From: Gallionellaceae bacterium
Lineage (GTDB): Bacteria; Pseudomonadota; Gammaproteobacteria; Burkholderiales; Thiobacillaceae
NCBI GenBank assembly: GCA_028714735.1
Contig: JAQTLU010000002.1
Coordinates: 443,840-483,839 of the forward strand
Direction: 5' to 3'
DNA length: 40,000 nt
Part shown: piece by piece, positions 10,945-24,743 of the stretch
Position numbering within the stretch: position 1 is the stretch's first letter
Layout of the letters: each line of letters begins with the position of its first letter
Made by a program: the position numbers and the translations under genes
The notes under the pieces: generated by a model
The model's database searches: none
The model's input: only the letters and a program-made list of their open reading frames with translations
What the model was told of the DNA's origin: nothing

Positions 10945-10957
10945 AGCGCACTTCCGC

Positions 10958-11470
10958 TTAGATGTGGGCGGCGAAGGGGTGTCCCGCGCTGCCCTTCTGG
11001 GCCACGACCTCGACGGCGGTGGGCGTGCCGGCCACGGCGCGCTTGATCGACTGCTTGGTGGCCTCGTAGTTGTAGTCCTGGATCTTGGTGTCGTCGTTGG
11101 CTTCCCAGTGGATGAACACGCCGACGCAGATGAACAGGTTGTCGGCTTCGTCGGCCGGAATGGTGCCGTCCTCGACGCAATCCGCCACCGCCATGGCCAC
11201 GCCGCGCTGGGCCGGCCCGAACATTTGCACCGCCTGCTTGGCGCCCTTGATGGTCACCTTGTTGAACATCATGGTGTTGGGCTTGCAGGGCAGGTTGGGG
11301 GCCACCACGGCGAGCAGGGAGGTGAAGCCGTCCTTGTTGTTGACCAGGCCGTTGCAGAACGCCGATTCGACGGCACTGCCGCGGGGGCCCATGATCAGGT
11401 CGATATGAGCCACCTCGTTGCCGTCGCCCACCAGGGACTCGCCTACCATCACGCGATCGATCTTAGCCAT
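10958..11470 (-). CDS. fae: Formaldehyde-activating enzyme
   Basis: 170 aa. [32 protein letters not shown]...[13 protein letters not shown] is a near-textbook Fae sequence. An AAGGAG SD lies 7 nt upstream of the ATG. Confidence 0.95.
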
Positions 11471-11581
11471 CTTTATTCTCCTTGGAATTGCACAGACTCG
11501 GTTGGATTGAAATGGTGGGCCAGCGCCGAGTCGTTCGCGGGCAAACCAGTGGTTTCAACACCTGAAAGGCGTTTCAAAACA

Positions 11582-12499
11582 TCAAACATCCCGTTTTTCA
11601 TTCCGGGCCTGATTTGAATTCATGTCCCTGCCGGCATGGCCAAGCCGGTCCGCCAGCCAGGTGGCCACGGTGAGGTCGGCGCTGGTGCCGGGGTTGATCG
11701 CCGCCGACTTGAAGGCCTGGTCGAGGGCCTCGATGCGGGTCCGCACGCTGCGCCAGTCTGGGCATCGGGATAGCTCATCCAGGCAGGACCGGGCCATGCC
11801 TTGCACCCGTTCCGCGGTGGCCAGGCCGTGCTTGCGCGCCACGTGGCTGTCCGGAAATTCGGCCAGGTAGCCGAGATAGACCAGCACCCCGGCCCGCTCG
11901 TCGCTGCCCAGGCGGATGCGTTCCCGGCGCAGGGCAGGCAGGCCGGAGGCGAAGATGTCGGCGTAGCCGTTGGCGTACTGGCAGGCGATGCGGTCGCGCT
12001 GCGCCGCTTCGGCCATGGCGGTCAGCAGGCTGACCGCGGGGCGCGTACGTACGTCGTGGCGCGGACTTGTGCCCAGACCGGCCGGGGCGGCGAGACAGAT
12101 GGCCCGGTAGGCCCACTCGGCATCCTCCCGGTCGAGCCCGGCCAGGGTGTGGTGCAGACGCCCGGCCAGGGTCTCGCCGGGCCGGCGGTTCTGGGCGGCA
12201 TGGATCAGGGGCGCGGCGAGCAGGACGATGCCCAGGTTGGTGTTGCATGCCACGGCCCGGTGCGTGGCCTCGATGGCCCGGTAGATGCGTTCGCCGACGC
12301 CCAGCGCCGGGTCGGCGAGCGGCGGGGCGGCGGCGGCGGCACTGAGCAGGAAATCATCGGCCGTCATGCCGTGCCCGGGGGAGTCGTGGCTCACGTTGCC
12401 GGGCTTGAAGGCCGACACATCGAGGGCGCAGGCCTCGATGAAGGCCGCTGCCGGAGCCATCGGGCAAGCCGGGATGGGGGGCGCCAGGCGGGCGTTCAT
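11582..12499 (-). CDS. Triphosphoribosyl-dephospho-CoA synthase (CitG/MdcB) family protein, H4MPT-cluster type
   Basis: Start at MNARLAPP (12499) forms an ATGA overlap with the upstream stop. It is CitG-like (KPGNVS...NTNLGIVLL...INPGTSADL). The 623-aa track ORF is an artefactual upstream extension. Confidence 0.75.
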   Translation of the reverse strand: MNARLAPPIPACPMAPAAAFIEACALDVSAFKPGNVSHDSPGHGMTADDFLLSAAAAAPPLADPALGVGERIYRAIEATHRAVACNTNLGIVLLAAPLIHAAQNRRPGETLAGRLHHTLAGLDREDAEWAYRAICLAAPAGLGTSPRHDVRTRPAVSLLTAMAEAAQRDRIACQYANGYADIFASGLPALRRERIRLGSDERAGVLVYLGYLAEFPDSHVARKHGLATAERVQGMARSCLDELSRCPDWRSVRTRIEALDQAFKSAAINPGTSADLTVATWLADRLGHAGRDMNSNQARNEKRDV

Positions 12500-13410
12500 G
12501 CCCGCCGCTCCAGCTGCCCGGGCGCCACATGGCGGTCGATGAAGTCGTGCGCCAGCAGGCTGGCGATGTCGGGCTGCGTGACCCCCTGCAGGCCGCGCCA
12601 GGCCGGGATGCTGTTCACTTCGATGACCACGAGGCGGCCATCCCGGTCGCGCATCAGGTCGACTCCGGCGTAATCCATGTCGAGGGCGCGGGTGGCCGCC
12701 TCGGCCAGTTGGAAAAGCCCGGGCTCCTCCGGCGCCGGCAGGCAGGCGCCGCCCTGGGCCACGTTGTTGATCCAGCCGATGCCGCGCCGGGTCATGGCGG
12801 CCCGGCTGCGGCCGCCGATCACCAGCACGCGATAATCCTCCCAACCCTCCGCCACGGCGCCTATGTAGCGCTGCAGGTAGTAGACGCAGCGGTAGTCCTG
12901 CGCCGGCGGCAGGTCGGCGGGCCGGGCCAGGCGGCGCAGACCGGTGCCCTGGGAGCCGAACAGGGGCTTGAGCACCAATTCGCCGCCTCGGGCCACTTCG
13001 CGCATGAGCACGGTCCGGGCCTGGTGTTCCGATTCGCACACCCAGGTCGCCGGCGTGGGGATGCCGGCCTGGTGCAGGAGCAGGCTGGTCATGGCCTTGT
13101 CGACGCTTTTTTCGATGGCCCGCGCCGAGTTGTAGACCGGCACGCCCAAAGCCGGCAGCAGGTGCAGGAAGTCCAGGCGCAGGACGACCTGCTCCAGGGT
13201 GCCGCCGGGAACGCCGCGCACGAAGACGCCGTCCGGCAGGCGATCCTCGTAGCCGGGCAGCACCAGGCCGCCCACGCCGCCTTCCAGGTCCATCCGGCAC
13301 TCCGTCAGCGACAGGAAGGTCGAGCCATATCCTTGCGCGGCGAAGGCGCGCCTGAGCCGCTTGCCGTGCCAGCCGGGATCGTCGGTGATGATGGCGATGC
13401 GGCCGTTCAT
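12496..13410 (-). CDS. RimK-family ATP-grasp ligase (H4MPT:alpha-L-glutamate ligase MptN-like)
   Basis: 304 aa with a RimK-like pattern ([31 protein letters not shown]). It is translationally coupled to mch by an ATGA overlap at 13407-13410. Confidence 0.8.
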
Positions 13411-14381
13411 GCGAAAGAGCGCTCCAGCAAGGACGGGTCCAGTTGCCCGGCATGGAAGCTGCGGCCGCTGGTCAGGCAGGTCACCGTGACCCGGGCAGGG
13501 GCGAACAGCAACGGGTCGATCTTGTAGAAGTCGTAGCCGGCGGCCTTGAATGTCTGTGCGAACGGCTGGCCGTAATCGGCCGAGGCCGAGCTGGGCATGC
13601 GCCGGGCCAGATCCTCCGCGGCGGCATCCTCGCCCGCGACGAACAGATGCACGCGGCCGCCGAACAGGATGGCGTCGTTGGTGCGGCCCATGGCGGTGAG
13701 GAAGTCCGGCGCCGGCGGGCAGATCGGTGCCGTGCCCAGGCCATCGACGATATGTGCCAGGGGAAAGCCCAGGAAATGGGCCTTGTGCAGGGCCACTTCG
13801 AGCACCCGCGCGACCACCTGTACCGAGCCGGCCAGGCTGCTGGTCGGGGTGAGGATCAGGGTCAGGTCCTCCGGCGCGACGCCGCAGTCACGGGCGATCT
13901 TGTCCAGCAGGGGCAGGGGCGGGATCTTGTCGGTTTCCAGCACCAGGCAGGCCGGCGCGTCCTCGGCATGGTCCCGGTAGGGGATTTCCCGGAACAGTTC
14001 CTCCTTGCCGGCGCGGGCGCGGGCGGGGCCCGAACCCAGGGCGAAGAAGGCTTCCTTGCCCTCGCCGTGGGCCAGGCTCCAGCCGGCATACTGGCTGCCC
14101 AGGCAGGCCAGCACCGGCTGGGCCGTGGCGACGGAGAGTTCCCAGGGCCAGACGGGGGAGGTCTGGGCCGGATTGATTTCGACCCGGCCCAGACCGCCCA
14201 GGCAGATCTCGGCGATCAGGCGGCCGGCCTCGATGCCGCCGGCGACCTGGCGGCCGGCATCGACGAGGCGGACGCCGTTCTCCGCGCGGGTTACCGCCAG
14301 GCGCAGTTCAGGCGCGCGCCGGACCAGGTCTTCCACCAGGGGGGCGGCCAGTCGGTTGAGGCTGGGAATCATGGCGGTCAT
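13407..14381 (-). CDS. mch: Methenyl-tetrahydromethanopterin cyclohydrolase
   Basis: 324 aa. Length and sequence are typical of Mch (…GSQYAGW…[10 protein letters not shown]…), in the conserved mtdB-…-mch-…-fae context. Confidence 0.9.
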
Positions 14382-14391
14382 GGGTTCAGGT

Positions 14392-15573
14392 TCACAGGGT
14401 GGTCAGCAGGCCGGGGTGTGCCGCGACGGCGGCGATGCCGCCGCGGGACCGGGGTTGGCATTGCTCGAGCAGATGCAGGATTTCTTCGCGCCGGGCCAGC
14501 ACGGCCCGCTCGGCGGCGGCGGCGGTGCCGTGTTCGGCATGGACGCTGCAGACGGGGTCGCCTGGCGTCATCGCCTGTCCCGCTTCGGGCAGGTCGGCGC
14601 ACCAGCGCGGCCAGGCGAAGTCGGCCGGCACCTGGAGCGGACGATCGGCATAAACCAGCGCCGTCGCCGCCGAATCCGCGGCTTCCGGAAGGTGCGTCGG
14701 AAGGCGGCCCTGGCAGGCCTGGACATGCAGGTCGAAGAGCGGCGGCAGGGGCGCGCGGTCCCATAGTTCGACCGTGGCGGTGGGGCGCGGATTCAGCTCC
14801 AGCAAGCTCCAGCCCTGATCGCCGACCATGAAGTCGAGGCCGTTGAGCCCCTTGAGGCCCAGCCGTTGCGTGAGCGCTGCGGCCGCCTTCAACACGGCCT
14901 CCGCCTGCCTTTCCGGTCCGTGCGGCTGGCGCACGGCTCCGGCATAGCGCCAGGGGTGGCGCGCGCCGGGCGATGGCGCCAGGGGGCGGTTGAAGCCGAT
15001 CGGCATGGCCTCCTCGCCGTTGGCGAGAAACAGCAGGGACCATTCGTCGCCCGCCACCCGGCGCTGAAAGTAGCTCCTCGCGTCGGTATCCCGGGCCTCG
15101 GCCAGCGGCCGGACATGGACGCCGCCGCAGGCGCCGGCCTGCTTGCATAGCCAGCCCTCCGGATCGGCGGGCCGGGTCGGCACGGTAACGGGATGCGGGA
15201 TGCCCAGCTCGTCCAGCATGGCGGCGAACCGGATCGGGTTGGCCAGGACATCCAGGACTTCGGGACGGTTGCCCAGCAGCGGGCGCGTGGCAGCCAGGGC
15301 GCGCAGCAGGTCCGGCCGGGCCTCGAAGCCGGAGCCATAGACCAGGCCGTGACAATGCCGGCCTGGACACAGGCGTTCGGCCGCCGCCAGCATGGCGTCG
15401 GCGTCCATGTTCCAGTCCGAATCCAGCGGCGCCTGGGCCCAGGCCCGGGCCAATTCGCAGGTATCCCGGTCGGCGAAGGCATCCACGCCCACGGCAGGAC
15501 GGCCCGCGCGGGCCGCCGCCCGGGCCAGGATGCGCCCCGACAGCGCGACGATAAGGAAGCCGCTAGGCGACAT
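14392..15573 (-). CDS. ATP-grasp superfamily protein (COG2232-type) of the H4MPT-linked pathway
   Basis: 393 aa. It has ATP-grasp C-terminal elements (GLNGLDFMV…LLELNPRP) and lies between mtdB and mch. Confidence 0.7.
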
Positions 15574-16465
15574 GCCTTCGGGCCTCCTGCAGGCAGTCTT
15601 GCAGGCCCAGGTAGAGGGGCGATTCGGTGTTGCGCATGGCCTGCAACAGGGTCTGCTGGACCTTGTATTTCAGGTTGCCGATGGCCAGTGGCCCGATGCC
15701 CAGGGCCCGTCCCGAGGCGGCGATCAGATGGGCGCCGTCAGCCATGACGTCGATGCCTGCCACGCCGGCGGGCGGCACCGCGTTGATGTCTGCCGCCACC
15801 AGCAGCGTCCGGGCCATGGCCAGGTGGGTCGGGCCGATCACCTGGACGCCGGCCCTGGCCGTGGCCAACACCATATCCGCGTCGGCCAGGAGTGCCCCCT
15901 TGGCGCTTTCGCCGCTGCCGTCGGCCGCGCCCACCGCCACGCCGAAGCGGGCGTTGATGGCGTCCGCGGCCGCACGTGCGCGGCTGAGACCGTCATGACC
16001 GGGAATGGTGACCTCAGCCCCGGCCTGGGCGGCCAGCACCGCCGCCGCCATGCCCACCGGGCCGGTGCCGCCGAATACCACCACCCGGCACCCGGACAGC
16101 GTGCGGCCATGGTGTTCGGTCAGCGTCCGCTCGGCCTTCGCCACCATGGCGGCAGCCGTGGTAAAGGCGCCGCTGGGGTCGGCGAAGACCGAGACCTGGA
16201 AGGGCGGAACCATGGCCGCACGGGCTGCGTCCAGCATGTCCGCGGCTTCGACCGCATCGCGCCCGCCGATGAAAATGCCGGTGCGCCTGGCCCCTTTGGG
16301 ACCGCGCGAGAAGATCGCGTCCTGGGTAAAGCCGGCAATCTCCGCCAGGGCTACGCCGGCGTAGGGGATGACGGCATCCCAGCCTGCGTCGTAGGCCATG
16401 TTGACGTCGAACGGACTGACCCGTGGGCCGGGAGTGGCGAAATGCAGTAGAAAGGGTTTGTCCAT
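15563..16465 (-). CDS. mtdB: NAD(P)-dependent methylene-tetrahydromethanopterin dehydrogenase
   Basis: Start at MDKPFLLHFATPG (16465), giving 300 aa. There is a Rossmann VVFGGTGPVG motif. It belongs to the MtdA/MtdB family, and MtdB is favoured by its position inside the H4MPT cluster. Confidence 0.85.
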   Translation of the reverse strand: MDKPFLLHFATPGPRVSPFDVNMAYDAGWDAVIPYAGVALAEIAGFTQDAIFSRGPKGARRTGIFIGGRDAVEAADMLDAARAAMVPPFQVSVFADPSGAFTTAAAMVAKAERTLTEHHGRTLSGCRVVVFGGTGPVGMAAAVLAAQAGAEVTIPGHDGLSRARAAADAINARFGVAVGAADGSGESAKGALLADADMVLATARAGVQVIGPTHLAMARTLLVAADINAVPPAGVAGIDVMADGAHLIAASGRALGIGPLAIGNLKYKVQQTLLQAMRNTESPLYLGLQDCLQEARRHVA

Positions 16466-16488
16466 GTAAGGCTCATCCAGAGGGTTGG

Positions 16489-17475
16489 TCAGGCCGTGGC
16501 GCGGCTCGTGCAGGGTTCGAAATCGATTTCCGCGCCCCGGTTGCGGCCCGTGCAGACCATGAATTCCAGGCCGCCGCCGGCGAACGCGTGGCGCGCCGCG
16601 CGGGCCAGGGAGTGGGCCTGGGTTTCGGAGCCGGTCAGGGCGAAACCGGTGGGCCCCCAGGAACTCTGCCCGACGCCGGCCGCGCCGTTGCCGGCGCAAA
16701 AGGCCAGTGCCCGGGTGACCCGGGCGCTGGCATAGCGGCCACCCTGGACCGGGGCGAAGTGGTCGCCTACCACGGCCTGAATGCCGCTGATGGCGGCGCC
16801 GAACGAGGCGATATCCTTCTCGGCCAGGGCCGGCATGGCCTGCATCAGGGCCAGGCGGCAGAGTTGGCCGGCCTGGCTCTCGGAAAACCTGGGCAGGGCC
16901 GCAAAGGCCTGCTTCTCCGCATCGCCGTGCAGGCCCCGGTGGGCGGGGTCCAGGATCAGCAGCAGGCGCCAGTTGGGCGGAAACTCAAGGTTGGCGGTCA
17001 CCGTGGGGGGCACGTCCTGGTCGCCTCGGCCGCCGTCCACCACGAAGCCGCCACGCTCGAACAGGCCAAGGCCGATGCCTGACCGGTGGCCCCGGTGCAG
17101 GGAACTGGCCAGGGCTCGCGGCGACCGCTCGACGCCGTAAAGCCGGGCCAGGGCGGTGCCCACCGCCAGCGCAAGCTGGGTGCCCGAGCCCAGGCCGGCG
17201 TGTTCCGGAATGGCCTGCCGGACCAGCAGGCGGGCGCCGGATTTGATGCCCATGCCTTCCAGGGTCGCTCTGGCGAAGGCCTCGACGCGCTGCGACTGGG
17301 GGCCATCGGCGCGGATGCGCTCATCGCCCCAGGCGGTGACCTCGGTGGCCAGCTCTTCCAAAGCCAGGCCCAGGCTGCCGAAACAGCGCCCCAGGCTGCC
17401 GTTGAGGTCGAGAAACCCCATGTGCAGCCTGGCTGGGGCGCGTACCGTGGTGCTGAAACAGGCAGTCGGAGTCAT
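16489..17475 (-). CDS. mptG: Beta-ribofuranosylaminobenzene 5'-phosphate synthase (GHMP-kinase fold)
   Basis: Start at MTPTACF (17475). RLHMGFLDLNGSLGR and PEHAGLGSGTQLALA are MptG/GHMP-type motifs. In-frame starts further upstream fall inside or before the predicted promoter. Confidence 0.85.
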   Translation of the reverse strand: MTPTACFSTTVRAPARLHMGFLDLNGSLGRCFGSLGLALEELATEVTAWGDERIRADGPQSQRVEAFARATLEGMGIKSGARLLVRQAIPEHAGLGSGTQLALAVGTALARLYGVERSPRALASSLHRGHRSGIGLGLFERGGFVVDGGRGDQDVPPTVTANLEFPPNWRLLLILDPAHRGLHGDAEKQAFAALPRFSESQAGQLCRLALMQAMPALAEKDIASFGAAISGIQAVVGDHFAPVQGGRYASARVTRALAFCAGNGAAGVGQSSWGPTGFALTGSETQAHSLARAARHAFAGGGLEFMVCTGRNRGAEIDFEPCTSRATA

Positions 17476-17509
17476 GTCGTCGTCATGGCAATATCGGGTA
17501 TCAGCGGGC

Positions 17510-17525
17510 AGCAATATCCATGCCA
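17510..17525 (-). promoter_or_regulatory. Sigma-54 (-24/-12) promoter for the mptG-mtdB-…-mch… operon
   Basis: The minus strand reads TGGCAT-GGATA-TTGCT with exact GG-N10-GC spacing. The element ends about 35 nt upstream of the mptG ATG. Confidence 0.75.
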
Positions 17526-17575
17526 TGGAAAAACTCCATATCAATCAGTCGGCTAGCGTTACTCCGCATGGATTC

Positions 17576-17594
17576 GCGTGACACTGTGTCACGC
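17576..17594. promoter_or_regulatory. 19-bp perfect palindrome GCGTGACA-CTG-TGTCACGC, a candidate enhancer-binding-protein site (UAS)
   Basis: Perfect 9+1+9 inverted repeat. It is centred about 60 bp upstream of the mptG -24 element and about 110 bp upstream of the fhcB -24 element. The same GTGACA-N3-TGTCAC core recurs at 30804-30818. Confidence 0.65.
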
Positions 17595-17693
17595 CGGGCG
17601 CGCCGGTCTCGGTACAGCGTTCAGCCGGTCCTGGACGGTCGCGGCGGGATGAACTGTTTGATTCGCCGGACAAAAGCGCGGCGCTGGTTTCCG

Positions 17694-17709
17694 TGGCATG
17701 GATCGTGCT
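17694..17709 (+). promoter_or_regulatory. Sigma-54 (-24/-12) promoter for fhcBADC
   Basis: The plus strand reads TGGCAT-GGATC-GTGCT with GG-N10-GC spacing. It shares TGGCATGGAT with the divergent mptG promoter. Confidence 0.7.
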
Positions 17710-17735
17710 CTGAGGCTCCCACCGTATTCACCCGT

Positions 17736-18971
17736 GTGCCTGCCGTGCCCGACTCCTTTTTCAGTTGTCCATTCTGCGGTCTGCTGTGCGATGACCTGCC
17801 CGCCGATGTCGAGCGTATCGGTTGCGCCCGTGCCACCCGGCTCTTTTCCGTACCGGCGCAGGGGCAGTGCCGGGTGTCCGGTCGGCCGGCGGACCCGGCC
17901 GAGGCCCGCCGGGTTGCCGCGGGCATCCTGTCGGGCGCCCGGCGGCCCCTGGTGGCCGGCCTGGCCTGCGACGTGACCGGGCATCGCGCCGCCCTCGACC
18001 TGGCCGAGCGGACCGGCGCCAGGGTGGACCACATGAATGGCCCGGCCCAATTCCGCAACTGGCTGGCGTTCCAGGACGGCGGCTGGATGACCACCACCCT
18101 TTCGGAGGTGCGCAACCGCGCCGATGTCGTCATCCTGGCCGGCACGGTGGCCTCGGCTTTTCCCCGCTTCTTCGAGCGCTGCCTGGCGCCCGAGTCCCAG
18201 TTTGGCGATCTGGCCCGGCGCGTGATCGTCCTGGGCGGGCCGATCTCGCGTCTTCCCGAGCCGTTCGCCGGATCGGCCCTCACCATTCCCGTCCCGGCAA
18301 CCCGCCTGGGCGAACTGTGCGCCGTCCTGCGCGCCCGCCTGACCGGCCGTCCGCTCCCGGTCAGGGAGGTGGCCGGGGTGCCTGCAGCGCAGATCGATGC
18401 CGTGCTGGAAATCCTGCGCAGCGCCCGTTATGGCGTCCTGGCATGGAATGCCGCCGAGCTCGATTTCCCCGGTGCCGAGTTGACCATCCAGGCCATGGTC
18501 GATCTGGTGAAGGACCTCAATCGCGACACGCGCTGGTCCGGGCTGCCGCTGGGCGGCAACGACGGCGATACCACGGCCGCCCAGGTCTGCACCTGGCGCA
18601 CCGGTTATCCGCTGCGCGTGGCCTTCGAGTCCGCCGGCCCGCGCTACGAGCCCCTGCTGTTCGATGCCGCGCGCCTGCTGGCGGCCGGCGAGGCGGACGC
18701 CCTGCTCTGGATCTCCGCGCTCGATCCGGCGCGCGTGCCGCCTGACGCGGCCTGTCCGCGCATCGTCCTGGGGCGTCCGGACATGGTCTTCGAGCACCCG
18801 CCCGAGGTATTCATCCCGGTGGCCGTGCCCGGCGTACACCAGGCCGGCTTCATGCATCGCATGGACGGCGTGGTGGCCCTGCCCCTGAGCGTCCGGGTGG
18901 CCAGCGAACTGCCCAGCGTGGCCCAGGCCATCGCTGCCATTCAGGAGGAGATGAAGCGTGTTGCGGCTTAA
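17736..18971 (+). CDS. fhcB: Formyltransferase/hydrolase complex subunit B (formylmethanofuran dehydrogenase subunit B homolog)
   Basis: FwdB-like, with an N-terminal SCPFCGLLCDD Cys cluster. The GTG start at 17736 (alternative 17745) is chosen because the predicted sigma-54 promoter at 17694-17709 lies downstream of the ATG at 17649 and the track start at 17520. No convincing SD was found, so the start is uncertain. Confidence 0.8.
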   Translation: MPAVPDSFFSCPFCGLLCDDLPADVERIGCARATRLFSVPAQGQCRVSGRPADPAEARRVAAGILSGARRPLVAGLACDVTGHRAALDLAERTGARVDHMNGPAQFRNWLAFQDGGWMTTTLSEVRNRADVVILAGTVASAFPRFFERCLAPESQFGDLARRVIVLGGPISRLPEPFAGSALTIPVPATRLGELCAVLRARLTGRPLPVREVAGVPAAQIDAVLEILRSARYGVLAWNAAELDFPGAELTIQAMVDLVKDLNRDTRWSGLPLGGNDGDTTAAQVCTWRTGYPLRVAFESAGPRYEPLLFDAARLLAAGEADALLWISALDPARVPPDAACPRIVLGRPDMVFEHPPEVFIPVAVPGVHQAGFMHRMDGVVALPLSVRVASELPSVAQAIAAIQEEMKRVAA

Positions 18972-20622
18972 GAACGGAAGGGTCTACGACCCCGTCCACG
19001 GCATCGACGGCCAGGTGCGGGACATCCATGTCCGGGACGGCCGCGTGGTCGCCGCCCCCCTGCCAGGCGATCCCGTCGATACGGAGATAGACCTGGCCGG
19101 GCGGGCGGTGATGGCTGGCGCCATCGACCTGCATACCCATATCGGCGGCGGCAAGATGAACATCGCCCGAGCCTTGCTGCCGGAAGACCACCGGCGCGAC
19201 CTGGTGCCCGCCATGGCCGGGCTGCACGCCGGCTGCGGTCACGCCGCGCCCTCGACCTGGACCACCGGTTACCGCTATGCCGAGATGGGCTACACCGCCT
19301 GCTTCGAACCGGCCATGCTGCCCGCCAATGCACGCCATGCCCATCTCGAGATGGGCGACATCCCGATGGTGGACAAGGGCGCCTACGCCATGCTGGGCAG
19401 CGACGACTTCTTCCTCCGTCTGCTGACTTCGGGCGCCGAGCAGCGCCTGATCAACGACTATGTCGGCTGGACCCTGGATGCCAGCCAGGCCATGGCGATC
19501 AAGGTGGTGAATCCGGGCGGCATTTCCGCGTTCAAGTTCAATGCCCGCAACCTGGATCTGGACGAGGCCCATCCCCATTACGGCGTCACGCCCCGGCGCG
19601 TGATCCAGGTGCTGGCCCGGGCCGTGCACGAACTCGGCCTGGCCCATCCGCTGCATGTGCATGCCAGCAACCTGGGCATACCCGGCAACGCCGACACCAC
19701 GCTCGCCACCATGGCCGCCGCGGAAGGGCTGCCCATCCACCTGACCCACATCCAGTTCCACAGCTACGGCAAGGAGGGCGAGCGCGCCTTTTCCTCGGAG
19801 GCGGAACGCATCGCCGATGCCATCAACCGCATGGCCAACGTGTCGGCGGACGTCGGCCAGATCCTGTTCGGCCAGACCGTGACCGCCTCGGGCGACACCA
19901 TGGCCCAGCACCGCAACCATCGCCACGCCAGTCCGGACAAGTGGGTGGTGATGGACATCGAGTGCGATGCCGGCTGCGGCGTGGTGCCGTTCAGGTACAA
20001 GGACAAGAATTTCGTCAACGCGCTGCAATGGGCGATAGGCCTGGAACTGTTCCTGCGCGTCACCGATCCATGGCGCATCTTCCTCACCACCGACCACCCC
20101 AACGGCGCCCCCTTCACCAGCTATCCGCACCTGATCCGCTTGCTCATGGACCGGAGTTTCCGCAACTCGAAACTGGACGAAATCAATGCCGAAGCCGCCG
20201 CCCACAGCCAGTTGCGCGGTCTTGACCGCGAGTACAGCCTGTACGAGATCGCCATCATGACCCGCGCCGCGCCGGCCCGCTCCCTGGGGCTGAGCGATCG
20301 CGGCCACCTCGGCGAGGGCGCCGCCGCCGACATCGTGGTGTATCGCGATCTCGCCGACCGCGAGGCGATGTTCGAAAAACCCGAGTACGTGTTCAAGGAC
20401 GGCCGCCTGATCGTGCGCGACGGCAAGGTGGTGAACGTGGTCAATGGCGCCCTGCACACCGCGAAGCCCGAGTACGACAAGGGCATCGAGAAGCCCCTTA
20501 AGGAGTATTTCGACCGCTACATGACGGTGAAGATGGAGCACATCAAGGTGAGCGACGAGGAGATCTGCGCCTGCGGCGCCAGCAAGCTCATTCCCCATCA
20601 GTGCAAGAGGCGGGCGGCATGA
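18958..20622 (+). CDS. fhcA: Formyltransferase/hydrolase complex subunit A (formylmethanofuran dehydrogenase subunit A homolog, amidohydrolase fold)
   Basis: 554 aa. A GTG start is preceded by AGGAGGAG. It has the amidohydrolase motif GAIDLHTHIGGG and an FwdA-like length. Confidence 0.9.
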   Translation: MLRLKNGRVYDPVHGIDGQVRDIHVRDGRVVAAPLPGDPVDTEIDLAGRAVMAGAIDLHTHIGGGKMNIARALLPEDHRRDLVPAMAGLHAGCGHAAPSTWTTGYRYAEMGYTACFEPAMLPANARHAHLEMGDIPMVDKGAYAMLGSDDFFLRLLTSGAEQRLINDYVGWTLDASQAMAIKVVNPGGISAFKFNARNLDLDEAHPHYGVTPRRVIQVLARAVHELGLAHPLHVHASNLGIPGNADTTLATMAAAEGLPIHLTHIQFHSYGKEGERAFSSEAERIADAINRMANVSADVGQILFGQTVTASGDTMAQHRNHRHASPDKWVVMDIECDAGCGVVPFRYKDKNFVNALQWAIGLELFLRVTDPWRIFLTTDHPNGAPFTSYPHLIRLLMDRSFRNSKLDEINAEAAAHSQLRGLDREYSLYEIAIMTRAAPARSLGLSDRGHLGEGAAADIVVYRDLADREAMFEKPEYVFKDGRLIVRDGKVVNVVNGALHTAKPEYDKGIEKPLKEYFDRYMTVKMEHIKVSDEEICACGASKLIPHQCKRRAA

Positions 20623-21515
20623 TCGTCAACGGCATCCTGGTCGACGATACCTACGCCGAGGCCTTCGCCATGAAGGCCACCCGCATCATCATCACCGCGG
20701 ATTCCCTGACCTGGGCGAAACACGCCGCCAACGCGGCCTTCGGCTTCGCCACTTCGGTCATCGCCTGCGGCTGCGAGGCCGGCATCGAACAGGAACTGGC
20801 CCCGGAGGCTACGCCGGACGGCCGCCCCGGCGTGGCCGGCCTGCTGTTCGCCGTCTCCACCAAGGAGCTGGCCAAGCAGCTGGAGCGGCGGGTCGGCCAG
20901 TGCATCCTGACCTGCCCGTCCACGGCCGTGTTCGCCGGCTGCCAGGGGGAGGAGTCCCTGCCCCTGGGCAAAAACCTGCGCTATTTCGGCGACGGCTGGC
21001 AGGTCTCCAAGCTCGTGGCGGGCCGGCGTTACTGGCGCATCCCGGTGATGGACGGCGAGTTCCTGGCCGAGGAAAGCACCGGCCTGATGCGTTCGGTGGG
21101 CGGCGGCAACTTCCTGGTCCTGGCGCGCTCCCGCGGCCAGGCCCTGGCGGCCTGCGCGGCGGCAGCGGCGGCGATCGCCCGGGTGCCCGGCGCCATCGCC
21201 CCCTTTCCCGGCGGCGTGGTGCGCTCCGGCTCCAAGGTCGGCTCCAAATACAAAGCCCTGCCGGCGTCCACCAACGATGCCTATTGCCCCACCCTGCGCG
21301 GGGTTGCCAGGACCGCACTGTCGCCGGAGGTGGAGGCGGTGCTTGAGATCGTCATCGACGCGGTCACCGACGCCGACATGCGCGTGGCCATGAGGGCCGG
21401 CATGGACGCGGTCCTTGCCGTGGGCGCGGCCGGCGGCATCGTGCGCCTGTCGGCAGGGAATTACGGCGGCAAACTGGGCCAGTTCCATTACCCCCTGCGG
21501 GAGATACTGGCATGA
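20619..21515 (+). CDS. fhcD: Formylmethanofuran:tetrahydromethanopterin N-formyltransferase
   Basis: The ATG at 20619 overlaps the fhcA stop (ATGA). MIVNGILVDDTYAEAF…RIIITA is typical of the Ftr N-terminus. Confidence 0.9.
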   Translation: MIVNGILVDDTYAEAFAMKATRIIITADSLTWAKHAANAAFGFATSVIACGCEAGIEQELAPEATPDGRPGVAGLLFAVSTKELAKQLERRVGQCILTCPSTAVFAGCQGEESLPLGKNLRYFGDGWQVSKLVAGRRYWRIPVMDGEFLAEESTGLMRSVGGGNFLVLARSRGQALAACAAAAAAIARVPGAIAPFPGGVVRSGSKVGSKYKALPASTNDAYCPTLRGVARTALSPEVEAVLEIVIDAVTDADMRVAMRAGMDAVLAVGAAGGIVRLSAGNYGGKLGQFHYPLREILA

Positions 21516-22318
21516 GCGCCACGATCCTGACCTTGCGCGCGGGGTCCGCGGGCCGCATCGACATGAGCGGTGTGCTGCCCGAGACCACGGCCGGAAGATC
21601 GCCGGCGCAGATCGCCGCCATGACCGTCCGCCTGGATGGCCAAGCGGTGCCGCTGGGCGAGTTGTTCGAAGTGGGGCCGGACGTCGGCGAGGCGTTGCTG
21701 ATCCGCGCCGAAGCCGCGCGCCTGGATTGCCTGGGCCGGGACATGACCGGCGGCACCCTGCGGGTGCAGGGCCCGGCCGGCCATTATGCTGGCCAGGGCA
21801 TGCGCGGCGGTGAGCTGGTCATAACCGGCGATGCCGGGGATTTCGCCGCCAGCGGCATGCGCGGCGGTTTGCTGCGCGTCCACGGCAACGCCGGCGACTG
21901 GCTCGGCGCCGCCCTGATCGGCGAACGGACTGGCATGGCTGGAGGCGTGGTGGCGGTGGCCGGCGACGTCGGCGCGCGCTTGGGCGACCGCATGCGCCGC
22001 GGCCTGGTCCTGGTGCGCGGCCGGGCCGGCAACGCCTGCGGCGCGCGCATGCTGGCGGGCACCCTGGTGGTGGCGGGTGGTTGCGGCGATCTGGCCGGCT
22101 TCGCCCTGCGCCGCGGCTCCCTCATCCTGGGCCGGGCGCCGGACCGGCTGCCAGCCACATTCAACGATGCCGGCGTCGCCGACCTGACCTGGCTCGGACT
22201 GCTGCAGCGTCATGCCCAGGGCATCCTGCCGGATGTCGTGCCCGGCAGCGGGCGCATGCGGCGCCACATGGGCGACCTGGCGTTCGGCGGCAAGGGCGAA
22301 GTACTGGTGCCGGAATGA
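21512..22318 (+). CDS. fhcC: Formyltransferase/hydrolase complex subunit C (formylmethanofuran dehydrogenase subunit C homolog)
   Basis: 268 aa. It has the repeated G-x-x-M-x-G-G beta-helix repeats characteristic of FwdC (GQGMRGGELVITGDAGDF, ASGMRGGLLRVHGNAGDW). There is an ATGA overlap with fhcD. Confidence 0.9.
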   Translation: MSATILTLRAGSAGRIDMSGVLPETTAGRSPAQIAAMTVRLDGQAVPLGELFEVGPDVGEALLIRAEAARLDCLGRDMTGGTLRVQGPAGHYAGQGMRGGELVITGDAGDFAASGMRGGLLRVHGNAGDWLGAALIGERTGMAGGVVAVAGDVGARLGDRMRRGLVLVRGRAGNACGARMLAGTLVVAGGCGDLAGFALRRGSLILGRAPDRLPATFNDAGVADLTWLGLLQRHAQGILPDVVPGSGRMRRHMGDLAFGGKGEVLVPE

Positions 22319-22854
22319 AGCTGATCCTGATGCGCCACGGCGAATCCGAATACAACCTGCGCGGCCTGTGCAATGCCGATCCTGCCGTACCGGTCGGCCT
22401 GACGGCCAGGGGGCGTCAGCAGGCGGAGGTGGCCGCCCGGCGCTGGCGCCACGCGCCGATACGTCGCGTCTACGTTTCCCGCCTGCAGCGCGCACAGGAA
22501 ACGGCCGCCATCATTTGTGGCGGCCATTGCGCCCACATCCACGTGGATGCCCGGCTGGACGACCGCAGGACCGGATTTGAGGGCGCACCGGTGGAATCGT
22601 ATCTATGCGCCATGGGCGCGGCGCCGGACCCCTTCTCCTGGAAGGTGGCTGGCGGCGAGTCCTACCGCGAAATGGCGGCACGGGTGGATGCCTTCATCGA
22701 CGAACTGGCGGGGGTGCGCGAGCCCGTTGCCATGGTGGTGACCCACCATGAAGTGATCCAGGCCGTGGCGGGCCGCTTCATGGGCCTGACCATGGACGCC
22801 ATGTGGCGGATCGGGGTGGATCATGGCACCAGCCTGGAATTCGACCTGGACTGA
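22315..22854 (+). CDS. Histidine phosphatase (phosphoglycerate-mutase-like) family protein
   Basis: The ATG at 22315 overlaps the fhcC stop. It has the catalytic RHGESEYN motif at the N-terminus and a downstream THHEV histidine. Confidence 0.8.
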   Translation: MKLILMRHGESEYNLRGLCNADPAVPVGLTARGRQQAEVAARRWRHAPIRRVYVSRLQRAQETAAIICGGHCAHIHVDARLDDRRTGFEGAPVESYLCAMGAAPDPFSWKVAGGESYREMAARVDAFIDELAGVREPVAMVVTHHEVIQAVAGRFMGLTMDAMWRIGVDHGTSLEFDLD

Positions 22855-22858
22855 AGCC

Positions 22859-23680
22859 ATGTTGCGCTGCGGCCGATTCCGCTTCGACCTGACCCGTCCC
22901 CTGGTGATGGGTATCGTCAATGCCACGCCGGATTCCTTTTCCGATGGCGGTCGCCATGCCACTGCCGAGCGCGCCATCGAGCACGGCCTGCGCTTGCGCC
23001 AGGAGGGGGCGGACATCCTCGACGTCGGCGGCGAATCCACCCGTCCCGGCGCCACGCCGGTCGGGGAGGATGAGGAACTGGCACGGGTGTTGCCGGTGCT
23101 GGCCGGCCTGCATGATTGCGGCGCCGCCCTGTCGATCGACACCATGAAGCCGCGCGTCATGGCGGCCGCCCTGGCGGCCGGAGCGGACATGATCAACGAC
23201 GTGAACGCCCTGCGTGCCGAGGCCGCCCTGGCGGCCGTGTCAGGCTCGGATTGCGGCATCTGCCTGATGCACATGCAGGGCACGTCGCAGACCATGCAGT
23301 TGGCGCCCGACTACGACGACGTGGTGGCCGAGGTTGCCGGCTTCCTGCACGAACGCATGAACGCCTTGCGCCAGGCCGGCATCGCCGGGGAGCGGATACT
23401 GATCGACCCCGGTTTCGGCTTCGGCAAGACGCCGGCGCACAACGTGGCGCTGTTCCGCGCGCTGCCCCATTTCGCCAAGCTGGCGCCGGTGCTGGTCGGC
23501 ATGTCGCGCAAGTCCCTGTTCGGCATACTCACCGGCAGGCCGGTGACGGAGCGGACCATCGCCAGCGTCGCCGCCGCCATGCTGGCGGCCATGCAGGGTG
23601 CCGCGATCCTGCGCGTGCACGACGTGGCCGCCACCATCGATGCTCTCAAGGTCCTGGAAACCCTGGGCCATGACCAATGA
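22859..23680 (+). CDS. folP: Dihydropteroate synthase
   Basis: GIVNATPDSFSDGG, DVGGESTRPGA, INDV and GFGFGKT are canonical DHPS motifs. The start at 22859 comes just after the upstream stop. Confidence 0.92.
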   Translation: MLRCGRFRFDLTRPLVMGIVNATPDSFSDGGRHATAERAIEHGLRLRQEGADILDVGGESTRPGATPVGEDEELARVLPVLAGLHDCGAALSIDTMKPRVMAAALAAGADMINDVNALRAEAALAAVSGSDCGICLMHMQGTSQTMQLAPDYDDVVAEVAGFLHERMNALRQAGIAGERILIDPGFGFGKTPAHNVALFRALPHFAKLAPVLVGMSRKSLFGILTGRPVTERTIASVAAAMLAAMQGAAILRVHDVAATIDALKVLETLGHDQ

Positions 23681-23703
23681 TTTTTTCCGAGAGGAGGATC
23701 GAC

Positions 23704-24138
23704 ATGCAGATTGCAAGGTTCCTGTTCGCCGCCGGCCTAGTGGTCTCCAACCTGGCGCCGGCCGCCGGCATCAAGGTTGAAAACGCCTGGTTGATGGCCA
23801 CCCTGCCGGGCCAGAAGGTGGCGGGCGGGTTCATGGATATCACCGCCGAGCAGGACATGGCGCTGGTGGGCGCCAGCAGCCCGGTGGCCCAGGCCGTGGA
23901 ACTGCATCGCATGCGCATGGCCGACGGCGGCATGGAAGTGCGCGCGTTCAAGTCCCTCCGCCTGCCCAAGGGCAAGACCGTCAACCTGGCGCCCAGCGGC
24001 CTGCATGCCATGCTGATCGGACTCAAGGCGCCGATCAAGGCCGGCGATCTGGTGCCCATGTCCCTGGCATTCGACGACGGTCACGGCGGGACCGCCAGCC
24101 TGGACGTGACCCTCAAGGCGGCAACGCGGCTCTATTGA
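23704..24138 (+). CDS. Periplasmic copper chaperone PCu(A)C (DUF461)
   Basis: The ATG at 23704 is preceded by GAGAGGAGGA. There is a signal-peptide-like N-terminus, and the Cu(I) motif pattern H-x-M…M…GGLHAML is present. Confidence 0.8.
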   Translation: MQIARFLFAAGLVVSNLAPAAGIKVENAWLMATLPGQKVAGGFMDITAEQDMALVGASSPVAQAVELHRMRMADGGMEVRAFKSLRLPKGKTVNLAPSGLHAMLIGLKAPIKAGDLVPMSLAFDDGHGGTASLDVTLKAATRLY

Positions 24139-24158
24139 TATCCGCTGGCGCCGCTGTC

Positions 24159-24743
24159 TCAGGACGCCGCCGGCATGGGCAGCGGCCAGGCGCCGCGCTC
24201 CCGGGGGACCATGCCGCGGCCCAGGTTGCAGAGTGCGAGAAATCCCGTATCCAGCGCGGGAGGGCGCAGGTAGTGAACCTCGGCCTGGTCGTCGAGTCCG
24301 GCCAGGAGCAGGTCGGCACGGCCGCGCCCGGGGATGACGCAGTCGGGGTCCACCTCCAGCAATGGCGCCAGGACGAATCGGCGCAAGTGCATACGGGGGT
24401 GCGGGAGGGTGAGGTGGTCGGCCTGCATTTCCCGGTGGTCGTACAGCAGCAGGTCCAGGTCCAGGGTGCGCGGACCGTTGACCAGGCTGCGCACGCGGCC
24501 GTGCCGGCTCTCCAGCTCCAGCAGTTCGTGCATCAGCGCGTAGGGGGAGAGGCTGGTTTCCAGAAGGGCCACCGCGTTGACGAAATCGGGCTGGTCGGCA
24601 TGGCCGACCGGCGCGCTGCGGTACAGGGAGGAGGCTTGTACGAGATGGCTGTGGGGCAGTCGGTCCAATTCGGCAAAGACCCGGTTTAGGCGTTCGGCCG
24701 GATTGCCCAGGTTGCCCCCGAGGGCGACGTGGGCGCGGCTCAC
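24159..24743 (-). CDS. folK: 2-amino-4-hydroxy-6-hydroxymethyldihydropteridine diphosphokinase (HPPK)
   Basis: VALGGNLGNP, FVNAV, RPLDLDLL-like (RTLDLDLLLY), LPHPRMHLRRFVLAPL. The GTG start overlaps the fdsD stop (GTGA). Confidence 0.88.
   Translation of the reverse strand: MSRAHVALGGNLGNPAERLNRVFAELDRLPHSHLVQASSLYRSAPVGHADQPDFVNAVALLETSLSPYALMHELLELESRHGRVRSLVNGPRTLDLDLLLYDHREMQADHLTLPHPRMHLRRFVLAPLLEVDPDCVIPGRGRADLLLAGLDDQAEVHYLRPPALDTGFLALCNLGRGMVPRERGAWPLPMPAAS

Follow-up and report, generated by a model that had tools for sequence, protein, structure and literature searches.

The 260-bp spacer between mptG (ATG at 17475, minus strand) and fhcB (GTG at 17736, plus strand) very probably constitutes a classical bidirectional sigma-54-dependent control region, operated by a GAF-type activator that is encoded in the same gene cluster and that would govern a shared regulon. 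Two divergent sigma-54 promoters flank a perfect palindrome, an arrangement that recurs elsewhere in the 40-kb window, by which we mean the whole stretch of DNA analysed here. The initial annotation had proposed that H4MPT-dependent formaldehyde oxidation is controlled by RpoN and an enhancer-binding protein; the conservation of these elements and a clustered candidate activator bearing a GAFTGA loop lend that proposal support.

Predicted divergent sigma-54 promoters face the mptG and fhcB operons

P_mptG lies on the minus strand at 17510–17525 (reverse complement, TGGCATGGATATTGCT) and P_fhcB on the plus strand at 17694–17709 (TGGCATGGATCGTGCT). The TGGCAY-N6-TGCT motifs originally described can be read directly at both places, the GG-N10-GC spacing is exact, and the GC dinucleotides fall at 17511/12 and 17707/08, respectively. 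At its -12 element, P_fhcB reads GTGCT in the window and CTGCW in relatives, not TTGCW. Transcription is predicted to start near 17499 for mptG and near 17720 for fhcB, which would give short leaders (24 nt to the mptG ATG and about 16 nt for fhcB) without a clear Shine-Dalgarno sequence. Both start codons agree with the N-termini of the corresponding NCBIfam models.

These two promoters and two more at a second divergent region, discussed below, had been put forward as four correctly oriented copies of a motif far rarer by chance, and the counts bear this out. A search of the 40-kb window for TGGCAYN6TGCT returned four matches against 0.28 expected, a number reached by none of 100 shuffles. 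The four promoters also rank highest in 40 kb when both strands are scanned with a weighted consensus, scoring 22, 22, 22 and 21.5 out of 22. All lie within the intergenic 6.5% of the window, each directed at the adjacent operon, and all place GG and GC 10 nt apart within the TGGCAC-N5-TTGCW framework. The weighted scan gave no further high-scoring intergenic sigma-54 site in the window. Additional promoters before fae, the His_biosynth-like gene and the decarboxylase were considered and rejected, as no high-scoring intergenic site lies there; high-scoring sigma-54-like sites at 23079 and 14535 are intragenic. No sigma-70-like promoter was found in either divergent spacer or across 9000–25000.

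We infer the extents of the two operons. That of P_mptG (9727–17475, minus strand) would comprise mptG, mtdB, an ATP-grasp gene, mch, a RimK/CitG fusion, fae and a PTPS-like gene, assigned by Pfam and NCBIfam and syntenic in relatives. Its sole terminator-like match is a 5-bp stem at 15559–15571, and the scan gave fewer matches than in shuffles. That of P_fhcB (17736–24689, plus strand) would comprise fhcB, fhcA, fhcD, fhcC, a histidine phosphatase gene, a pterin-binding DHPS-like gene, PCuAC and orf184, and is likewise syntenic in relatives. An apparent 505-bp gap after fhcC, considered as a further control region, is the histidine phosphatase gene itself. FhcB and MptG score below their NCBIfam equivalog cut-offs, and their assignments are backed by the TIGR00144 subfamily model and by synteny. 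With fae, mtdB, mch, fhcBADC and mptG all present, the genes qualify as an H4MPT-linked formaldehyde oxidation module.

A conserved palindrome lies between the promoters

Between the two promoters is a putative upstream activating sequence at 17576–17594, GCGTGACA-CTG-TGTCACGC. Direct reading confirms that it is an exact 8-N3-8 inverted repeat, as first claimed; its conserved core is GTGACA-N3-TGTCAC. From its centre at 17585 it is 61 bp to the minus-strand GG and 110 bp to the plus-strand GG, in keeping with the enhancer-like distances of about 60 and 110 bp given in the initial annotation. Relative to the predicted starts, the centre lies at about -86 for P_mptG and -135 for P_fhcB. A second, single half-site is found at 17610–17617 (CGGTACAG in the window, CGTGACA in most relatives), so that the spacer contains one complete palindrome and one half-site; activators often have two or three full sites.

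Two IHF-like sites lie in the same spacer. The first, at 17529–17556 on the plus strand, combines an A-tract with the conserved core AATCAR-N4-CTAG, and in the window also reads TATCAA-N4-TCG, matching eight of the nine specified positions of WATCAANNNNTTR. The second, at 17651–17663, has the opposite orientation (minus strand AATCAA-ACAG-TTC). Both are provisionally assigned to IHF by position and by match to the WATCAANNNNTTR consensus, which is loose. Across this spacer and the second divergent region, the IHF-like sites are placed between enhancer and promoter and match eight or nine of the nine specified positions of that loose consensus.

Retention of the motifs in relatives with the same gene order had been set beforehand as a test of the proposal, and among 20 Thiobacillaceae loci that keep this order, both promoters and the palindrome are present in every one. 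P_fhcB reads TGGCAY in 19 of the 20; in the other (L016) it is GGGCAC with unchanged spacing. These loci also retain the second half-site and a pair of IHF-like AATCAA cores, the remaining spacer is scrambled, and FhcB of these relatives is 55–76% identical to that of the window. In an alignment of 15 of the Thiobacillaceae spacers (A1), the GCAA and T.CCA of P_mptG and the TGGCA and TGC of P_fhcB are invariant. TGGCA and TGC are also invariant in an alignment of nine sequences of the second divergent region (A2), and in both alignments the N5 between them varies. All 12 half-site bases of the palindrome are invariant in A1 and its 3-nt spacer is variable; also invariant are the G and ACA of the second half-site and the AATCA and TA of IHF-like site 1, and the TTGATT core and GAA of IHF-like site 2 are conserved. 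Column identity is 0.92 for the palindrome, 0.82 for the half-site and 0.74 and 0.71 for IHF-like sites 1 and 2, against a background of 0.52, and pairwise identity in A1 is 0.66–0.85 inside motifs versus 0.32–0.42 outside.

Spacing is conserved as well. The palindrome lies 61–64 bp from the minus-strand GG (73 bp in one locus) and 108–112 bp from the plus-strand GG (122–123 bp in three loci), such that shifts of 10–11 bp between loci amount to about one helical turn. The palindrome thus has the geometry of an enhancer, an inverted repeat some 80–150 bp upstream on a fixed face of the helix. TGACA-N3-TGTCA occurs once per roughly 21-kb Thiobacillaceae locus, in the mptG–fhcB spacer; copies elsewhere are limited to four loci, in each of which the site precedes a pair of kinase and regulator genes. 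Two other Burkholderiales MAGs (L031 and L058) retain both promoters and an ACA-N3-TGT core. At distant fhcB loci (Gemmatimonadales, Methylococcaceae, Ferrovum and alphaproteobacterial) the motifs are absent, which indicates that the system is lineage-restricted.

The layout recurs between fdsGB and mtoX

The region between fdsGB and mtoX-SCO1-mauG-fae repeats the mptG–fhcB layout. P_fds, at 30690–30705 on the minus strand (TGGCATGCGACTTGCT), faces a NAD-linked formate dehydrogenase operon (24743–30656, minus strand) consisting of an fdsGB fusion, fdsA, fdhD and fdsD. P_mtoX, at 30953–30968 on the plus strand (TGGCACGGTTGCTGCT), faces a methanethiol oxidase operon (31066–34983, plus strand) of mtoX, SCO1/SenC, mauG-like and fae-like genes, which may extend into a PLP decarboxylase gene ending at 36503. 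Genes of both operons were assigned by Pfam; MtoX, of the SBP56 family, reaches 735.9 bits with the NCBIfam equivalog NF052453, whose cut-off is 650, and the mtoX-SCO1-mauG order is that found by Eyice et al. 2017. Transcription from P_mtoX is predicted to start near 30979, 87 nt ahead of mtoX, in a leader with the ribosome-binding site AGGAGA.

Putative activating sequences are found at 30804–30818 (GTGACAgtcTGTCAC), conserved in L091, L098, L099 and L105, and at 30851–30865 (GCGACAaaaTGTCAC), where G.GACA...TGTCAC is invariant in all nine A2 sequences. This recurrence of the palindrome goes beyond what had initially been recorded. A third half-site lies at 30880–30887 (TCTGTCAC; TCAGTCTGTCAC in most of A2). 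Of the IHF-like sites, that at 30746–30758 (plus strand, AATCAATGCTTTG) matches all nine specified positions of WATCAANNNNTTR and is partly conserved in A2, and that at 30922–30934 (minus strand TATCAA-TGAC-ATA) matches eight, with TGA invariant in the nine A2 sequences and the T before it kept in 70% or more of them.

P_fds is conserved in the same four loci as the activating sequence at 30804, and a sigma-54 promoter and palindrome also accompany fdsG in L081 and L165. The fds/mtoX layout is present in ten related metagenome loci whose MtoX is 66–82% identical to that of the window; a P_mtoX counterpart lies 117–154 nt before the mtoX ATG in these loci, and within 117–124 nt in nine of them. 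More distant mtoX loci are without the motifs.

A clustered enhancer-binding protein is the candidate activator

The GAF-type protein encoded at 3–1337 (plus strand) is, on sequence context, most probably the activator of the four promoters. The window edge cuts its gene at the 5′ end, leaving the 3′ two-thirds, identified by Pfam; a full-length copy, P0001 in L080, is 99% identical, and the complete protein of about 655 aa has the domain order MimR_N-GAF-PAS-like-AAA+-HTH_8. Matches to PF00158 (Sigma54_activat, 1.9e-64) and PF02954 (HTH_8, 1.2e-12) are strong, and the translation contains Walker A GETGTGKE, GAFTGA, Walker B FLDEIGDM, REDLYYR and an HTH, that is, the Walker motifs, GAFTGA loop, arginine finger and C-terminal HTH_8 of an enhancer-binding protein. 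Such a GAFTGA-bearing activator implies that the genome also carries rpoN. PF26965 and PF01590 match full-length orthologues, which have no receiver domain, as is typical of AcoR/MimR-type regulators. The protein falls far below cut-off for every NCBIfam equivalog model (for DhaR, 296 against 551), and its sensor region is only 42% identical to a gene annotated eatR. By sequence, its clade is separate from the characterised AcoR/MimR-type members (AcoR, EatR, MimR, DhaR, PrpR and others).

In nine genomes (window/L080, L081, L165, L166, L167, L170, L171, L172 and Paraburkholderia L173), the H4MPT/methanofuran island begins with an orthologue of this gene, and the cluster encodes no other enhancer-binding protein. 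Just left of the window, as seen in L080, a third divergent sigma-54 pair is located upstream of the activator gene around GTGACAgaaTGTCC, and variants of this palindrome occur at the equivalent place in L081, L084 and L165. The Thiodictyon plasmid pTs485 carries a homologue whose sensor region is 53% identical, and after this gene come first GTGACAgtgTGTCGC, then TGGCATCAAAATTGCT. We connect the activator to the palindrome through this co-location, the site before the regulator's own gene and the co-transfer in Thiodictyon. Other homologues, 52–54% identical, adjoin the S-(hydroxymethyl)glutathione dehydrogenase gene adhC near the S-formylglutathione hydrolase gene fghA, both neighbours scoring above NCBIfam equivalog cut-offs. 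In L168 and L169, the DNA separating adhC from the regulator gene contains no canonical sigma-54 promoter. In the more distant genomes L166, L167, L171 and L172, the stretches covered, which lie outside the mptG–fhcB spacers, are poor in strong sigma-54 sites and lack any palindrome of the GTGACA type.

These data could be read differently, with the sigma-54 promoters being real, the palindrome serving as operator for another protein (a repressor or TetR/MarR-type factor), the activator being some other enhancer-binding protein from outside the cluster, such as a response regulator of the NtrC type, and the GAF-type regulator controlling something else. We regard this as improbable. It gains some ground from the reliance of the palindrome–activator link on sequence context, from a TetR-family gene at 36584–37183, from the PAS kinase/LuxR-type regulator pair with its own TGACA-N3-TGTCA site in some relatives, and from more distant regulator-bearing loci, in whose covered parts no palindrome stands out. 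However, a position of -86/-135 with helical phasing to both promoters suits an enhancer and not a promoter-overlapping operator, and the palindrome both precedes the regulator's own gene and travels with the homologue onto the Thiodictyon plasmid. The regulator, as the only enhancer-binding protein in the cluster, also keeps its position in nine genomes, and reading of the mptG–fhcB spacer revealed no NtrC-type TGCACC-N5-GGTGCA site.

It is very unlikely that the motifs are sigma-70 or CRP/FNR-type sites that mimic sigma-54 elements, with the palindrome being a CRP-like CGTGA-N7-TCACG. GTGA and TCAC are indeed common to both kinds of site, but the half-sites here are separated by N7 and those of CRP by N6, which leads us to reject the CRP-like reading; moreover, neither spacer has a -35/-10 pair, and the invariant positions are exactly the sigma-54-diagnostic GG, GC and flanking T/A. 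Chance or non-regulatory conservation (a repeat element or RNA structure), in favour of which we found nothing, is scarcely credible given that no shuffle yields four matches, that conserved positions cluster in separate islands within otherwise diverged sequence, that the palindrome arms are fixed and the spacer between them variable, and that the elements stand upstream of both predicted transcripts; an Rfam search of the whole window returned no match and hence no structured RNA.

Proposed mechanism and regulon

In the model we favour, a bidirectional sigma-54 region served by the clustered GAF-type activator, sigma-54 RNA polymerase would wait as a closed complex on the two divergent -24/-12 promoters. 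An enhancer-binding protein would occupy the palindrome at the centre (GTGACA-N3-TGTCAC) together with the half-site next to it. With the help of an IHF-like bend on each side, the activator ring would reach either promoter, which ATP hydrolysis would then open. RpoN dependence in vivo, the identity of the protein on the palindrome and IHF binding are what we infer. An equivalent module would drive the fdsGB and mtoX operons at 30690–30968, and another, just left of the window, an operon for an mptA-type GTP cyclohydrolase (GCHY-1) together with the activator gene. The regulon would cover the conversion of methanethiol to formaldehyde, H4MPT and methanofuran synthesis, and the oxidation of formaldehyde to formate and of formate to CO2, and would be silent unless a one-carbon signal is present.

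That signal is most likely formaldehyde, as suggested by the adhC and fghA genes near regulator homologues and by the resemblance of the sensor region to the eatR-annotated gene. More tentatively, and with the balance leaning against it, the MimR_N-GAF clade might sense formaldehyde directly, forming a new class of formaldehyde-responsive factor that acts via sigma-54. Cys39, Cys139, His149, His153 and His221 (P0028 numbering) are invariant in the sensor region and are candidate ligand-reactive residues. If this is true, branches of the clade across Betaproteobacteria would switch on their host's own formaldehyde-oxidation module. In Thiobacillaceae and Paraburkholderia this would combine H4MPT/methanofuran with formate dehydrogenase and methanethiol oxidase; other hosts would have adhC/fghA and perhaps xoxF as well.

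Bacterial regulation of H4MPT-linked formaldehyde oxidation is poorly understood, and in model methylotrophs the pathway is treated as highly, more or less constitutively expressed. To our knowledge, the sulfur-oxidising autotrophs considered here meet formaldehyde only during degradation of methanethiol or dimethylsulfide. Here, cofactor synthesis, one-carbon transfer, formate dehydrogenase and methanethiol oxidase all appear to stand behind tightly closed sigma-54 promoters, and one dedicated activator appears to govern the whole module. The layout, shared among sulfur-oxidising Thiobacillus relatives, points to an undescribed on/off switch for burning methanethiol-derived one-carbon units, probably worked by the clustered regulator gene. 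What emerges is a concrete regulon together with a defined DNA site and a candidate sensor protein, and orthologues occur in Thiobacillus, which can be cultured, and in Paraburkholderia, which is amenable to genetics. A further use is in forecasting, with nothing but sequence, when environmental Thiobacillus populations serve as methanethiol sinks; if the signal is formaldehyde, the activator could also be useful as a biosensor part.

Relation to known systems

Full-text literature searching turned up no account in which H4MPT, fhc or mtoX genes are under sigma-54 or an enhancer-binding protein, consistent with the original remark that such control departs from the textbook description. The mechanism itself is classical; its assignment to H4MPT formaldehyde oxidation was not found in the literature searched. 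In the one methanotroph transcription-start map that we found, from Methylosinus sporium, methane and central-carbon genes are attributed to RpoD promoters. A study of Paraburkholderia phymatum gives fhcA and fhcD as bacteroid-induced only, not RpoN-dependent, and a survey from 2025 includes predicted sigma-54 sites upstream of certain formate dehydrogenase genes.

The architecture described here resembles the FhlA system in having divergent sigma-54 promoters that share activating sequences and IHF or IHF-like sites, a GAF-type sensor and a one-carbon regulon. In that system, the E. coli formate regulon, the divergent hyc/hyp operons are activated by FhlA, which senses formate. However, FhlA controls a hydrogenlyase complex, its binding site differs and the regulated genes are unrelated; the window regulator scores 198 bits against the NCBIfam FhlA model, whose cut-off is 830. 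A single enhancer set between back-to-back sigma-54 promoters is also known from zraP-zraSR of E. coli, which shows autoregulation, and flaN-flbG of Caulobacter, which has IHF sites. The activators of both are phosphorylation-switched response regulators, whereas the window regulator lacks a receiver domain and carries a GAF sensor of the ligand type.

Precedent for sigma-54 and an enhancer-binding protein acting on a one-carbon oxidation enzyme comes from methanotrophs, in which MmoR and the mmoX sigma-54 promoter control soluble methane monooxygenase in response to copper. Unlike the system proposed here, MmoR is not known to control a formaldehyde-oxidation module. Known formaldehyde-responsive regulators (FrmR, HxlR, NmlR/AdhR, FlhRS and EfgA/TtmR) fill the same role of matching oxidising capacity to formaldehyde supply, but they control glutathione, RuMP or stress pathways and not the H4MPT pathway, and we know of none among them that is an enhancer-binding protein or uses sigma-54.

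Finally, the AcoR/EatR/MimR-type regulators (COG3284, Pfam MimR_N and GAF) have the same order of MimR_N, GAF, AAA+ with GAFTGA, and HTH_8. Characterised members respond to small carbonyls such as acetoin, acetaldehyde and acetone. Several homologues of the window activator have been named 'transcriptional regulator of acetoin/glycerol metabolism' by JGI, and the literature searched connects no member of this type with formaldehyde or H4MPT genes. What sets the window activator's clade apart from these relatives is its target operons and its GTGACA-N3-TGTCAC site, both of which are specific to it.

Predicted sigma-54 promoters and palindromes in the window

Four matches to TGGCAYN6TGCT occur in 40 kb where 0.28 would be expected, a count not reached in any shuffle, and a weighted consensus scan of the whole window ranks the same four sigma-54 sites first to fourth. 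All lie in intergenic DNA, which makes up 6.5% of the window, and each is oriented toward the adjacent operon. Direct reading of the sequence showed the coordinates in the initial annotation to be exact for the mptG promoter (17510-17525, minus strand), the fhcB promoter (17694-17709, plus strand) and the intervening palindrome (17576-17594), whose centre lies 61 bp from the GG of the minus-strand promoter and 110 bp from that of the plus-strand promoter. The spacer between fdsGB and mtoX, with promoters at 30690-30705 (minus) and 30953-30968 (plus), likewise contains GTGACAgtcTGTCAC and GCGACAaaaTGTCAC, so the two spacers are alike in type of promoter and in type of palindrome. Neither contains a sigma-70-like promoter. 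Weak points of the mptG/fhcB spacer are the non-canonical -12 flank of the fhcB promoter, the presence of only one full palindrome and the lack of a clear Shine-Dalgarno sequence in the fhcB and mptG leaders, both of which are short.

Two further sigma-54-like high scorers, TGGCACGGGTGTTGCC in the pterin-binding gene (23079-23094, plus) and CGGCATGGACGCTGCA in an ATP-grasp gene (14535-14550, plus), are probably non-functional and indicate the background match rate. Separately, GCGACATGACGTCAC (37295-37309), two mismatches away from the palindrome pattern, follows the TetR-family gene (36584-37183, plus) in the adjoining spacer and could be the operator of that repressor or a chance match.

Gene content

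Protein-family searches of the window (67% G+C) place the 3' part of a sigma-54 activator gene at 3-1337 (plus), followed by PTPS-like, flavoprotein, DUF6513/pterin and DUF447 genes (1339-4335, plus); orf239 and AA_kinase-family, pabB-like (chorismate-binding), hydantoinase_A-like and ATP-grasp genes (4230-9055, minus); and a His_biosynth-family gene (9054-9761, plus). The predicted mptG operon comprises mptG, mtdB, an ATP-grasp gene, mch, a RimK/CitG fusion, fae and a PTPS-like gene (9727-17475, minus). Opposite it lie fhcB, fhcA, fhcD and fhcC with genes for a histidine phosphatase, a pterin-binding protein, PCuAC and orf184 (17736-24689, plus). Beyond are the NAD-linked formate dehydrogenase genes fdsGB, fdsA, fdhD and fdsD (24743-30656, minus), then mtoX, SCO1/SenC, mauG-like and fae-like genes (31066-34983, plus), a PLP decarboxylase gene (35040-36503, plus) and the TetR-family gene. 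MtoX scores 735.9 bits against an NCBIfam equivalog cut-off of 650, and the order mtoX-SCO1-mauG agrees with that described for the enzyme converting methanethiol to formaldehyde, sulfide and peroxide (Eyice et al. 2017, PMC5739008).

FdsG and FdsB are apparently fused in a single 666-aa ORF (28659-30656, minus), in whose N-terminal 250 residues Pfam reports no 2Fe-2S thioredoxin-like domain; the genes are separate in two relatives, L081 and L165 (141 and 520 aa). A supposed 505-bp gap separating fhcC from the pterin-binding gene was rejected, the stretch being occupied by the histidine-phosphatase (phosphoglycerate-mutase-like) gene (22317-22854, plus), whose product may be an H4MPT-biosynthesis phosphatase. 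Because Thiobacillaceae loci have a similar-sized gap here, they probably carry this gene too.

Conservation of the control regions

An FhcB query, at one genome per species, returned 79 loci, the closest of which (55-76% identity) come from Thiobacillus, Parasulfuritortus and other Thiobacillaceae and keep the gene order around the spacer. Conservation in relatives had been set as a test of the proposed elements, and the minus-strand promoter, TGACA-N3-TGTCA palindrome and plus-strand promoter are present in all 20 Thiobacillaceae loci that cover the spacer. The plus-strand promoter of one relative, L016, reads GGGCAC with unchanged spacing. Two other Burkholderiales MAGs retain both promoters and an ACA-N3-TGT core; the elements are absent from the FhcB loci of Gemmatimonadales, Methylococcaceae, Ferrovum and Alphaproteobacteria.

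In an alignment of 15 sequences the invariant columns group into six islands: the minus-strand promoter (AGCAA-N5-yrTGCCA), an A-tract followed by AATCAR-N4-CTAG, the palindrome (GTGACA-N3-TGTCAC), an additional CGTGACA half-site, GAA-N4-TTGATT and the plus-strand promoter (TGGCAyG-N4-cTGCw). Column identity is 0.71-0.92 in the islands versus 0.52 outside, and pairwise comparison with the window gives identities of 0.66-0.85 versus 0.32-0.42. No such constraint is seen at the three bases in the middle of the palindrome or in the N5 of either promoter, as expected of DNA contacted by protein rather than of a repeat element. Palindrome-promoter spacings are 61-64 and 108-112 bp, and the exceptions, 73 bp in one locus and 122-123 bp in three, add one helical turn. 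Two AATCAA cores, mirror-symmetric about the palindrome and each between it and one promoter, agree with 8 of the 9 positions specified in the IHF consensus and are putative IHF-like binding sites. In L013, a Thiobacillus MAG, the palindrome and fhcB promoter (9672-9952) are 281 bp apart versus about 110; either inserted DNA or a second regulatory module may account for the roughly 170 extra bases.

For the second spacer, an MtoX query against metagenomes yielded ten loci (MtoX 66-82% identical) in which the mtoX ATG is preceded by a sigma-54 promoter at a distance of 117-154 nt (nine of them at 117-124 nt) and, at 218-291 nt, by one or two palindromes; four also have the divergent minus-strand promoter. 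The islands follow the same order as in the mptG/fhcB spacer, with G.GACA-N3-TGTCAC invariant in 9 of 9 aligned sequences. More distant mtoX loci show none of these elements. The fdsG genes of L081 and L165 are likewise preceded by the promoter and a palindrome, which in L165 are separated by about 107 bp.

A third back-to-back sigma-54 pair lies upstream of the regulator gene at four loci: L080 (pair at 4994-5351, some 570-930 bp to the left of the window's first base), L081 (9692-10001), L165 (9685-10001) and L084. Contig L080, which bears the full-length regulator gene, is 99.4% identical to window 1-3085, window position x being L080 x - 5921. The central palindrome is GTGACAgaaTGTCC in L080, with variants in the others; one promoter is oriented toward an AhpC/SCO1-like gene and a GTP cyclohydrolase (GCHY-1) gene, and a conserved TGGyKCGGATWTTGCT stands immediately 5' of the regulator gene. 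That such a pair and palindrome precede the regulator gene itself suggests positive autoregulation.

In T. denitrificans DSM 12475 and relatives, ATGACAgagTGTCAT and, about 100 bp on, the sigma-54-like TGGTTCGATTATTGCA (locus L004, 17502-17616; also L002, L003 and L015) precede genes for a PAS histidine kinase and a LuxR-type response regulator located downstream of the fhc operon, and this pair may also belong to the regulon. Another relative, L170, has a comparable kinase/regulator pair close to its copy of the enhancer-binding regulator gene.

A candidate enhancer-binding protein

The regulator fragment encodes GETGTGKE, GAFTGA, FLDEIGDM and REDLYYR motifs and a Fis-type HTH; in the full-length orthologues, which are about 650 aa long, MimR_N and GAF domains and a PAS-like linker are also present. 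No NCBIfam equivalog model is reached at or above its cut-off, so the protein belongs to an unnamed clade of AcoR/MimR-type architecture. In nine genomes (window/L080, L081, L165, Pelomicrobium L166, Sterolibacteriaceae L167, L170, L171, L172 and Paraburkholderia largidicola L173) orthologues 57-99% identical stand first before a flavoprotein-DUF6513-DUF447-MfnB block, in some with a PTPS-like gene first, and the block adjoins fae, mch and related genes.

Two homologues (52-54% identity; L168 4111-7551, L169 2834-6353) are instead divergent to an S-(hydroxymethyl)glutathione dehydrogenase gene, with S-formylglutathione hydrolase close by. Both enzyme genes exceed equivalog cut-offs, and together they make up the glutathione-dependent formaldehyde pathway. 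Weak points are that the adhC/regulator-gene spacers of these two loci contain no canonical sigma-54 promoter and that the stretches covered in more distant regulator-bearing loci lack clear sites. Short tandem repeats lie immediately 5' of both homologues (CACCATTT units, L168 5490-5535; AAAAAGCAACGCT units, L169 4255-4305). Also close to the L169 homologue are near-perfect sigma-54 promoters TGGCACGTTAAATGCT (11573, minus) and TGGCATGCAAGCTGCT (12243, minus), one 5' of a PQQ methanol/ethanol-family dehydrogenase gene and the other 5' of a small neighbouring gene. On the gammaproteobacterial Ca. Thiodictyon syntrophicum plasmid pTs485 (L174 8893-13342), a homologue whose sensor region is 53% identical precedes GTGACAgtgTGTCGC, the sigma-54 promoter TGGCATCAAAATTGCT and an IS66 element, whose transposase appears to stand in place of the expected target gene; formate dehydrogenase (fdh) genes lie about 5 kb off.

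Proposed mechanism and signal

Sigma-54 holoenzyme requires an upstream-bound AAA+ activator to open DNA, and from this requirement a one-activator model is the most economical. A single assembly on the palindrome and half-site would work both divergent promoters, IHF-type bends would connect it with each, and transcription would stay off until a signal releases the sensor domain. We are fairly confident that the promoters and enhancer function in this way, and the clustered regulator is probably the palindrome-binding protein. The initial annotation had predicted that RpoN and an enhancer-binding protein govern H4MPT-dependent formaldehyde oxidation, a reading that sequence comparison supports.

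A gene annotated eatR shares 42% identity with the sensor region here, and acetaldehyde or acetoin is the signal for EatR and AcoR. Cys39, Cys139, His149, His153 and His221 of the sensor region are the same in every sequence compared from the two types of gene neighbourhood. The likeliest signal is formaldehyde or one of its adducts, because the only metabolite stream common to the regulated genes runs from methanethiol through formaldehyde and formate to CO2, and because relatives of the regulator also adjoin a biochemically unrelated formaldehyde pathway. We name formaldehyde itself only tentatively, and its direct sensing by the regulator is rather doubtful. Thiobacillus species grow autotrophically and break down DMS and methanethiol (PMC4611497; PMC5739008); they would need this module only occasionally, which would be consistent with the model.

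Relation to known systems

Divergent sigma-54 pairs with shared enhancers are already known, and the mechanism is textbook. A transcription-start study of Methylosinus sporium assigned RpoD motifs to methane and central-carbon genes and RpoN motifs to nitrogen genes, a 2025 survey predicted sigma-54 sites before some formate dehydrogenases, and a Paraburkholderia phymatum study gave fhcA and fhcD solely as bacteroid-induced. A full-text literature search, in which subscription journals were thinly covered so that an earlier mention is possible, found no description of sigma-54 control of this module. Two things appear to be new: the assignment of such control to the module of H4MPT, formate dehydrogenase and methanethiol oxidase genes, and a regulator clade dedicated to it.
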